Shown here: piece by piece, positions 19,460 through 20,422 of the stretch
Numbering within the stretch: the stretch's first letter is position 1
Layout of the letters: the number at the start of each line of letters is the position of its first letter
Notes under the pieces: model-generated
What the model was told of the DNA's origin: nothing
Databases searched by the model: none
The model's input: only the letters and a program-made list of their open reading frames with translations
Position numbers and translations under genes: made by a program
Assembly: GCA_046758505.1 (NCBI GenBank)
Contig: JBHIAH010000046.1
Coordinates: 1-20,422, forward strand
Direction of reading: 5' to 3'
DNA length: 20,422 bases
Source of the DNA: Candidatus Methylomirabilales bacterium
Lineage (GTDB): Bacteria; Methylomirabilota; Methylomirabilia; Methylomirabilales; CSP1-5

Positions 19460-19669
19460 ATGGAATGGCTAAGGCAATGGGATATAGTCCTGGTGCTCGG
19501 CGCCTTGCTGGTTTTGTGCATCGTCGCCCTGTTTCTTCGGTGGTTTCTCAGGCTCGACGAGATGGCCAGGACGCTGCACAATATTCATGAGGAACTCAGG
19601 CTCATGCGCGGGGCCCGCAAGAAGGAAGGGACGGATGAGCACAACGAGGAGGAAGAATATTATCTATGA
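19460..19669 (+). CDS. Small single-TM membrane protein with coiled-coil and acidic tail (69 aa)
   Basis: GGAAGG RBS; hydrophobic helix followed by RWFLRLDEMARTL..I.EEL. Confidence 0.7.
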   Translation: MEWLRQWDIVLVLGALLVLCIVALFLRWFLRLDEMARTLHNIHEELRLMRGARKKEGTDEHNEEEEYYL

Positions 19670-19846
19670 GCGACGGTCGGGGACGAGGCTACGGGACCCG
19701 AAGTGGGATCAGGCGTTGATATCTTGACAATCTTCTTGCGTTTTGACAGAGCCCGCTGTAGGAATGACCTATACGGTCCCCACTCATTCCCCCCATCACA
19801 TAGTCACTATGAGATACCCGGCACGAACCGTGAAAAGGAGGGAGCC

Positions 19847-20212
19847 ATGGCAAGACTGCTGATTACGGCCACGTACGGATACGATGACTCCACCCGCGCG
19901 ACGATGCCGTTCTTCTTAGCCAAGGGTGCCAACGAGGTGGGAATCGACGTCGGCGTTGTGTTGGCCCTCGACGCCACCGTGCTCGTCAAGCCTGAGTTCC
20001 GGCAGCACATCAGGCCGTTCGGCCAGCCGCCGCTCGAGGAGCTGTTCAACTTCGCCGTGGACCATAAGATCCCGATCTACGTCTGAGGGGGGTGAGCCCA
20101 GACCCGGGGGGTCTTGGACGCAGACCTCGAGCGTATCCCGGTGGTGCAAAAGATTGACGTCAAGCGGTGCGCCCAACTGCTGGTCGAGTACGACCGATCC
20201 GCCTCCTACTGA
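19847..20212 (+). CDS. DsrE/DsrF-like family protein, predicted selenoprotein with U80-G-G-U83 (121 aa)
   Basis: AGGAGG RBS; DsrE-like pattern LLITATYGYDDSTRATMPF.LA.GA...G.DV.V.L..DA..L...PPL.EL.......IPIYV; in-frame TGA at 20084 and 20093 where CxxC is expected; frame continues AQTRGVLDADL...AQLLVEYDRSASY to TGA 20210-20212. Confidence 0.88.
20098..20128 (+). promoter_or_regulatory. Candidate bacterial SECIS elements (two overlapping hairpins)
   Basis: Hairpin 1: AGACCC (20100-105)/GGGTCT (20109-114), GGG loop. Hairpin 2: GGGGTCT[T]G (20108-116)/CAGACCTC (20121-128), GACG loop, bulged U20115. Confidence 0.6.
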
Positions 20213-20422
20213 GTGCACCAACAGAAAAGGGCCCAGGCCCAGTCTTGGCCAAGATAGCTCTTTGAGAGTCCATGTTGGACAGCATCCAGCGCCGATCGTA
20301 GTTTTCTCTGTGCCTCGCAGCTGCCCCTGTGTGCCCGTAAGAGGCTGTTTCAGGGGGGGGCTCAATGGACTGCAAGCATCCCAAAGCGTTTGGGCGGTGT
20401 CTTCAAGAAAAGGGGACAGGCT

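Follow-up and report, generated by a model that had tools for sequence, protein, structure and literature searches.

The published model of the bacterial SECIS (bSECIS), in the text available from PMC13188914, describes a stem of 4-16 bp with a folding energy of -7.5 kcal/mol or lower and a loop of 3-9 nt, which has a G in its first two positions, mostly followed by G or U, and lies 16-37 nt after the UGA. For the SECIS of E. coli, the accessible parts of two further reports give G23 and U24 as the sites of SelB and put 11 nt between the UGA and the upper stem (PMC8659212), and state that the lower part has to open for the element to fit into the mRNA tunnel (PMC4513850). In the available text of these sources one element per UGA is described, including that of E. 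coli fdhF. At the locus presented here, each of two hairpins taken alone agrees with the four bSECIS constraints with respect to its own UGA, but the two share a strand and exclude each other, and the 5'-side bulged U17 is lacking.

DsrE-like selenoproteins (PF02635) are catalogued as UxxC proteins with one Sec in the accessible parts of PMC13188914 and PMC2398784, and UxxU is absent from the catalogue rows examined. The protein described below shares with them the family, the fold, the first Sec and a first hairpin, and differs in that the second Cys is also encoded by UGA (in 48/144 homologs) and is accompanied by a second hairpin. How bacteria decode Sec codons that lie close together is stated to be unresolved in the available text of a 2026 study of UXXU Group 4 [NiFeSe] hydrogenases, which puts forward a single SECIS for the pair while allowing for other factors (PMC13582414). 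These hydrogenases likewise have two UGAs three codons apart and pose the same decoding problem, but their relatives are, as far as that text goes, CXXU proteins with a SECIS beyond both UGAs. Here the relatives are UxxC proteins, so that the shared SECIS is too near the second UGA and another hairpin appears. In selenoprotein P, too, multiple UGAs go together with two SECIS elements; unlike the present case that protein is eukaryotic, and its SECIS pair lies in the 3' UTR, does not overlap and is independent of ribosome position, according to the portions available of PMC10778597 and PMC8659212. A search of full-text literature, which covered few subscription papers and no supplements, found no bacterial SECIS pair that overlaps or assigns one element to each codon, and none appears in the accessible text of PMC1976440, PMC10778597, PMC13326102, bioRxiv 2025.11.18.688581 or bioRxiv 2022.07.06.499078; the entries of BSepDB and the supplementary SECIS figures of PMC13582414 could affect this novelty. 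From comparative and folding analyses of the locus we propose, with a probability of roughly 0.6, that each of its two UGAs has its own SECIS, and that the two overlapping elements would be handed over by the moving ribosome.

The DsrE-family gene and its UGA pair

The window, that is, the whole stretch of 20,422 nt that was analyzed, carries on its forward strand a DsrE-family gene (19847..20212) encoding 121 aa when U80 and U83 are read through. The stop codon is the last TGA (20210-20212), and 11/11 close homologs end there too, with TAA, TAG or TGA; a Shine-Dalgarno-like AGGAGG (19836..19841, forward strand), read from the sequence and of presumed function, lies 5 nt upstream of the start codon. 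The protein matches Pfam PF02635 (DsrE; E=3.2e-13, 50.3 bits against a cut-off of 22.7), and its predicted structure (pLDDT 94.7) has the DsrE/YchN/TusD fold, with YchN, DsrE and DsrEFH as the top structural matches (E 6.5e-7 to 3.2e-6). A PDB sequence search with the protein returned no matches, and NCBIfam held no family for the three DsrE proteins tested. Judged by its fold, the protein is most likely a thiol/selenol sulfur or selenium carrier or reductant with a diselenide. Pfam families were assigned to 6 of the 27 neighboring ORFs, none of them tied to sulfur or selenium, and a promoter and terminator scan of 19600-20422 gave no sites. Directly after the stop codon there is a GC-rich short inverted repeat (20224-20245) with an A run on its 5' side, which failed the terminator scan. 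Five of the six closest named homologs are titled Methylomirabilota (identity 73-77%); one copy of the gene, 77% identical, is found in L047, a record with the unexpected title Patescibacteria.

Positions are numbered from the U of the first UGA (+1 = window 20084; +n = 20083+n). The translated motif is U80-G-G-U83. UGA-1 (20084..20086, forward strand; Sec80) is a TGA in 127 of 144 distinct homologs and a Cys codon in the other 17, and UGA-2 (20093..20095, +10 to +12, forward strand; Sec83) is a TGA in 48 of them and a Cys codon in 96. The preliminary description of this DNA had placed the two TGAs at 20084 and 20093, CAGACC at 20099 and again at 20121, and GGTCT at 20110, and all of them are located exactly there. 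Downstream of UGA-2, the homolog alignment shows that the reading frame is kept and that the variation is synonymous. As expected of a DsrE-like selenoprotein, the UGA is aligned with a conserved Cys in a genome with selA, selB, selC and selD. Both UGAs, three codons apart, are very probably read as selenocysteine. A sequencing error was rejected, since both TGAs are common to 48 distinct homologs, and so was a recoded genetic code with UGA as Trp or Gly, since UGA also terminates the gene and the Sec machinery is present.

This machinery consists of tRNA-Sec, selA, selB and selD, the last with a TGA of its own; selB is cut by a contig end, and the SECIS-binding winged helix, not found in the genome's selB, is present in 5/5 relatives tested. 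It seems scarcely probable that one of the UGAs is instead read as Cys via tRNA-ReC, in which case the motif would not be a true double Sec. According to the available text of PMC13582414, tRNA-ReC occurs in about 56% of the genomes with UXXU hydrogenases, and a tRNA could be missing from an assembly that is 96.8% complete and in 149 contigs. However, the 39 tRNAs of the genome include one with a UCA anticodon and one tRNA-Cys, a single tRNA-Sec match exceeds the cut-off and CysRS has one full-length match; moreover, tRNA-ReC is described in the same text as also SECIS-dependent, which would leave the two-hairpin logic as it is.

Homologs were collected in searches of relatives, the phylum, named genomes and metagenomes (one set being the best 80 of 259 matches), with 40 further picked regions. 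Three partial matches without the motif column were dropped from the main set, in which 208 usable matches gave 144 distinct 75-nt motif regions, namely 79 UxxC, 48 UxxU and 17 CxxC. Sampling of two other phyla later brought in another set of 32 UxxC, 11 CxxC and 4 CxxS or SxxS sequences, some of the CxxC genes being distant paralogs. These samples (351 genomes each) contributed no new UxxU DsrE gene among 47 new sequences; they held two two-TGA matches, of which one was already in the set and the other was a UxxC gene with its second TGA elsewhere. A protein-pattern scan of genome contigs with a single protein confirmed none of 225 candidates, while an alignment scan succeeded. The UxxC sequence L123, which is included in the counts, lacks 1 nt near +27 that its twins L118 and L120 have, probably an assembly error. 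The UxxU genes consist of clade A (n=35, including the window; SH-aLRT 100 in a quick tree), whose nearest sisters are the two UxxC genes L052 and L053, and of group B (n=13), which is unresolved as a clade. One origin of U83 in clade A and group B was not rejected against separate origins (AU p=0.241; 42/144 rows, motif and next 14 residues masked). The unpublished genome G021 supplies 2 of the 13 group-B rows (L024 and L033) and 2 of the 19 rows (L238 and L253) of the HMA-type family considered further below, and no claim on clade A depends on it.

The overlapping hairpins and their conservation

Hairpin 1 (20098..20117, +15 to +34, forward strand) has a core stem of 20100-20105/20109-20114, a loop at 20106-20108 (G23, G/U24, G25) and a short extension beyond a bulged U. 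Applying the published bSECIS constraints by hand, we found its 8 pairs, its 3-nt loop and its energy of -9.5 kcal/mol (+15 to +34) to lie within the limits, and the G23 G24 of the window to agree with the rule of a G in the first two loop positions; G and G/U at +23 and +24 are also the SelB positions of the E. coli fdhF SECIS. The 5'-side bulged U17 of fdhF-type elements is replaced by a paired A in 33 and by G in 2 of the 35 clade A genes. The loop begins 19 nt after UGA-1, a spacing that was claimed earlier and follows from the confirmed coordinates, and 10 nt after UGA-2. The first distance lies inside the range of 16-37 nt; the second is under the 16-nt minimum, and hairpin 1 therefore cannot serve UGA-2.

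Hairpin 2 (20108..20128, forward strand) has a stem of 20108-20115/20121-20128 and a GGAYG loop (20116-20120), with a U-C mismatch at the closing pair in the window. It had previously been described with a bulged U and a GACG loop starting at 20117, 21 nt after UGA-2, and with a CAGACC repeat flanking GGTCT. The spacing stands, but the bulged U and the GACG loop turned out to be a local variant (C at that position in 4/35), the conserved form having a U32-A38 closing pair (31/35) and the GGAYG loop; nor is the repeat a shared feature, since a double CAGACC occurs in 2/35 clade A genes and AAGACC stands at the second place in 30/35. Counted to the loop, the distances are 20-21 nt from UGA-2 and 29-30 nt from UGA-1, both inside the published range, and the 8 pairs, the G-first loop of 4-5 nt and the energy of -10.1 kcal/mol in the window (clade mean -11.6) are within the bSECIS limits too. 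The 3' arm of hairpin 1 is at the same time the 5' arm of hairpin 2 (20108..20114, +25 to +31, forward strand), and because both use this shared strand the hairpins are mutually exclusive.

As anticipated in the preliminary description, folding predicts both hairpins, each in some folding window: by minimum energy or centroid, hairpin 1 is obtained when folding starts at 20097 or 20100 and hairpin 2 when it starts at 20103 or 20106. Compared with dinucleotide shuffles, the stability of the single sequence gave no signal beyond chance in 10/10 folding windows (z -0.07 to +0.89). Synonymous codon shuffles gave p=0.012 for hairpin 1 and p=0.049 for hairpin 2 (2000 shuffles), and both hairpins together in 3/5000, in folding windows picked after the hairpins had been seen. 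The real support for the hairpins is comparative.

Across the UxxC alignment (73 distinct rows) hairpin 1 is 96.8% paired, with two-sided changes in 4/6 pairs, and none of 500 shuffles scored as high; in clade A it is 99.5% paired, a score that 8/500 shuffles reached. At least five of its six pairs are present in 109/111 UxxC genes (78/79 and 31/32 in the two sets) and in 35/35 clade A genes, and in none of the CxxC genes (0/17 and 0/11). G23 followed by G or U is found in 110/111 UxxC, 33/35 clade A and 4/28 CxxC genes, the clade A members L020 and L107 having A24 instead. CxxC genes lack hairpin 1 even where they encode the same ARG(V/I)T peptide, indicating that it decays when unused. Comparison within the DsrE family thereby shows hairpin 1 to be the SECIS of the single-Sec (UxxC) forms, still maintained in clade A, and from its conservation we infer that it is the hairpin used by SelB at U80.

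Hairpin 2 is 98.0% paired in clade A, where 4/500 shuffles reached its score, and 66.9% paired in UxxC genes, where 479/500 did. At least seven of the eight pairs can form in 34/35 clade A genes, in 9/111 UxxC genes (7/79 and 2/32) and in 0/28 CxxC genes, and in its nearest UxxC sisters, L052 and L053, both end pairs (25-45 and 31-39) are disrupted. By this comparison, hairpin 2 is shown to be fixed in the clade carrying the second UGA and largely specific to the two-Sec form. Evidence against a hand-over is that six of the eight pairs are partly a by-product of the peptide (G-V...D-L), pairing there being present in 46-76 of the 79 UxxC genes, and covariation in clade A is confined to one of eight pairs, two-sided in two related rows, while five pairs never vary; the support for this helix lies in its synonymous freezing.

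Selection on the two stems was followed on a synonymous-change DNA tree of clade A (33/35 rows, L193 and L194 left out; hairpin region excluded; length 3.8). No synonymous change was counted at Gln85, Thr86, Val89, Asp93 and Leu94, one each at Gly88, Leu90 and Glu92, four at Arg87 and seven at Asp91. Outside the hairpin region, none of 74 conserved degenerate codons had one change or fewer, with means of 4.9, 7.4 and 8.0 for two-, four- and six-fold codons. Rough Poisson tails were 0.0004 for Thr86 and Leu94, 0.0035 for Asp93, 0.033 for Glu92, 0.074 (weak) for Arg87 and 0.79 for Asp91, so that Asp91 in the loop of hairpin 2 is free whereas Asp93 in its stem is frozen. The third positions of Thr86 and Arg87 are part of hairpin 1 only and that of Glu92 is part of hairpin 2 only. 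Arg87 is never CGC in clade A, and outside the region 0/48 four-fold columns are without C; Glu92 is GAA in 28/29 rows, compared with 3-15 rows in the other six Glu columns. In L112 and L115, +17, +31 and +39 change jointly from A-U-A to G-C-G, by which one pair is kept in each hairpin. This is a single event in two related rows, L115 breaks one pair in each stem, and most pairs never vary and are uninformative alone. The preliminary description had reasoned that conservation of one hairpin only, or the same structures in Cys-only homologs, would speak against a hairpin pair. Neither pattern was found in clade A: both stems are synonymously frozen there, and Cys-only homologs have neither hairpin. 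It is thus well supported that two mutually exclusive hairpins are both under purifying selection behind UxxU in clade A. Separately, Arg96 (20132-20134) is never CGG in 28 clade A rows (CGT 17, CGC 7, CGA 4), CGG being the commonest Arg codon elsewhere in the gene.

Alternatively, hairpin 1 might recruit SelB at U80 and U83 might be decoded without a second SelB-read loop (e.g., with SelB held nearby), hairpin 2 serving to slow the ribosome or to shield UGA-2 from RF2. Hairpin 1 is indeed the better-proven SECIS, and besides the single covariation event in hairpin 2, G34-A35 of its loop is fixed by the Asp codon. We nevertheless regard this explanation as unlikely, because G33, the synonymous position that opens the loop of hairpin 2, is invariant in 35/35 clade A genes but is G in 3/9 UxxC genes with the same V-L peptide, and because the GGAY loop recurs in the different hairpin of group B and in other SECIS candidates of the genome.

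A possible 5-bp lower stem (20084-20088/20125-20129, +1 to +5/+42 to +46, forward strand) can pair in 35/35 clade A genes, with no two-sided change. It can coexist with hairpin 1 and would block hairpin 2 until a ribosome arrives; its predicted probability is 0.90-0.96 in the window with upstream sequence, and on average only about 0.3 across clade A. Weighing against the hand-over, the constraint at +42 and +45 is explicable by this stem, though that at +33 or +39 is not. A single long hairpin, made of hairpin 1 and the lower stem from UGA-1 to +46, could account for +42 and +45, in which case hairpin 2 would arise incidentally from the GVLDEDL peptide and from that lower stem; many UxxC genes likewise form the outer six pairs of hairpin 2, the single-sequence significance of which is marginal. 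Such a hairpin would, however, leave U83 without a SECIS at a usable distance, and it fails to explain GAA at Glu92, the matched +31/+39 change and the separate hairpin of group B, making it a very improbable substitute for two hairpins.

Folding at each UGA and the proposed hand-over

The mechanism that we favor would proceed as follows. When UGA-1 is in the A site, hairpin 1 would stand at the mRNA entrance, and SelB would bind its G23-G/U24 loop and deliver Sec80. When UGA-2 is in the A site, the 5' arm of hairpin 1 (+17 to +22) would lie 5-10 nt past the codon, inside the 11 nt kept unpaired, and hairpin 1 would be open because, in E. coli geometry, +13 to +23 forms the 11-nt spacer. The shared strand would then pair with +38 to +45 as hairpin 2, whose GGAYG loop, 20 nt after UGA-2, would bring in another SelB complex to insert Sec83. 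Hairpin 1 is the less stable of the two by about 2 kcal/mol on average and would have to be kept in place at U80, whether through SelB binding, the lower stem or slow refolding, and the lower stem would favor it before ribosome arrival. The UGA-2 half of this hand-over would follow from the geometry borrowed from E. coli.

Of the hand-over as suggested in the preliminary description, the conserved overlapping hairpins held up, and hairpin 1 is too close to UGA-2 to serve it; the expected order of folding at UGA-1 was not supported. With the mRNA free from +21 or +24 onward, hairpin 2 exceeds a probability of 0.5 in 33 and 34 of the 35 clade A genes, respectively. But with +15 onward free, corresponding to UGA-1 in the A site, equilibrium folding already gives hairpin 2 above 0.5 in 27/35 and hairpin 1 in 7, and hairpin 1 above 0.05 in only 11. 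For the window itself a sharp switch is predicted: the probability of hairpin 1 is 0.94-1.0 until +6 is covered, 0.51-0.63 from +14/+15 and below 0.1 from +16, but this prediction is unstable, with 0.02-0.04 for starts at +9 to +13. Folding with a growing 3' end gives no clear support for hairpin 1 forming first, as its mean probability is at most 0.41 before hairpin 2 can form. The barrier from hairpin 1 to hairpin 2 is estimated at about 10 kcal/mol.

The earlier premise that one hairpin cannot serve both UGAs was not supported: the loop of hairpin 2 is 29 nt after UGA-1 and thus in range, candidate loop Gs of the genome lie at +21 to +37, and 5/13 group-B genes are without hairpin 1. It is conceivable, if doubtful, that hairpin 2 is the SECIS for both UGAs (at 29 and 20 nt) and that hairpin 1 is a back-up or a competing fold tuning U80, with no obligatory hand-over. 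Hairpin 2 is more stable than hairpin 1 by a median of 2.1 kcal/mol across clade A and is the predominant predicted fold at both positions in most members, and both distances fit the published model. One SECIS can apparently suffice in the five group-B genes and in the HMA-type family, and a single SECIS has been proposed for the UXXU hydrogenases in the accessible text of PMC13582414. On the other hand, the sites belonging to hairpin 1 only are as frozen as those of hairpin 2 over the tree length of 3.8, and the G-G/U loop is kept in 33/35 clade A genes while hairpin 1 is gone from 28/28 CxxC genes; retaining a competitor of the sole SECIS calls for a reason.

Other UxxU genes, selenoprotein candidates and a possible direction rule

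In group B, the second hairpin (+31 to +51) has a GGAY loop 26 nt after UGA-2 and lies beside hairpin 1 without overlapping it. It is present in 12/13 group-B genes, in 0/111 UxxC genes and in 0/35 clade A genes. A strong hairpin in range of UGA-2 is thus found in every UxxU gene examined bar one per group, whereas UxxC genes are mostly without one. Against the hand-over, five of the 13 group-B genes (L079, L026, L033, L122 and L028) have lost hairpin 1 together with its G-G/U loop. All five read CGC GCC CGC GGG and can form an alternative hairpin of 4-5 bp at +14 to +27 with a GCCC loop, which may be a spacer, an odd SECIS or chance.

UxxU motifs were also found in an HMA-type family of metal-binding selenoproteins, present in 16/251 genomes (19 motifs parsed), the proteins of which are similar to NCBIfam NF041115 below its cut-off. 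As in the DsrE genes, two hairpins follow UxxU in 12/13 cases, but they stand side by side and the first is without a constant G loop. The first (+19 to +35) is covarying and has a mostly G-less loop; only the second (+38 to +54) has a constant loop, UGGA, 44 nt into the region, and the 13th UxxU gene has a single UGGA loop at +35. The first hairpin may therefore be a spacer, with one SECIS serving both UGAs. Two HMA-type UxxU genes lie on the minus strand of contig C10 of genome G000, with their first TGA at 41183 and 37432 (L231, L233, L249). Between them, at 40320 on the minus strand (L231:4603-4887), a TolB-like beta-propeller gene with an in-frame TGA is a candidate selenoprotein; it matches NCBIfam TIGR02800 below the cut-off and has a strong hairpin with a loop G at +22.

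Further candidates suggest that the G000 genome looks rich in selenoproteins. On contig C19 (minus strand, 2289; L232), a TGA at a Cys-like position is followed by an 8-bp hairpin with a loop G at +23, in a gene whose product we take, by motif, to be a cobalamin-independent methionine synthase look-alike. About a dozen more candidate genes lie on contigs C1, C2, C7, C24, C41, C48, C73, C79, C88 and C114, with motifs that are presumably thioredoxin-, peroxiredoxin-, AhpD-, OsmC-, deiodinase- or PrdB-like. After 15 other candidate Sec codons of the genome, chosen by eye from the best 90 of 108 and with presumptive family labels mostly based on motifs, the first loop G falls within +21 to +23 in ten cases and within +27 to +37 in the other five, among them selD with +37.

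We consider it about an even bet that the clade A element is a ribosome-driven RNA switch within a coding sequence, which would present one SelB loop to each UGA in turn and be latched in its first state by the stem that buries UGA-1, and that it is one case of a direction rule. Under this rule, a change from UxxC to UxxU, which puts a Sec downstream of the first, would need a new SECIS, whereas a change from CxxU to UxxU, with the new Sec upstream, would not, and the DsrE family would have found two solutions, overlapping hairpins in clade A and side-by-side hairpins in group B. A Prx-like UxxC family, taken as a test of the rule, contained no UxxU among 26 motifs parsed from 30 loci and so gives no information on it. 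One Prx-like gene (L272:435-902, minus strand) has an adjacent TGA pair (U-U) where its relatives have W-U; being a single sequence, this may be a mutation or an error.

The gene offers a sharp test of how close Sec pairs are decoded, as synonymous changes can abolish either hairpin without the other, and natural forms with no Sec, one Sec and two Sec are available for comparison. Should the hand-over be true, translation-driven refolding would join bacterial Sec decoding, SECIS predictors should seek one element per UGA, overlapping ones included, and the arrangement would give protein engineers a compact way to encode diselenide motifs.
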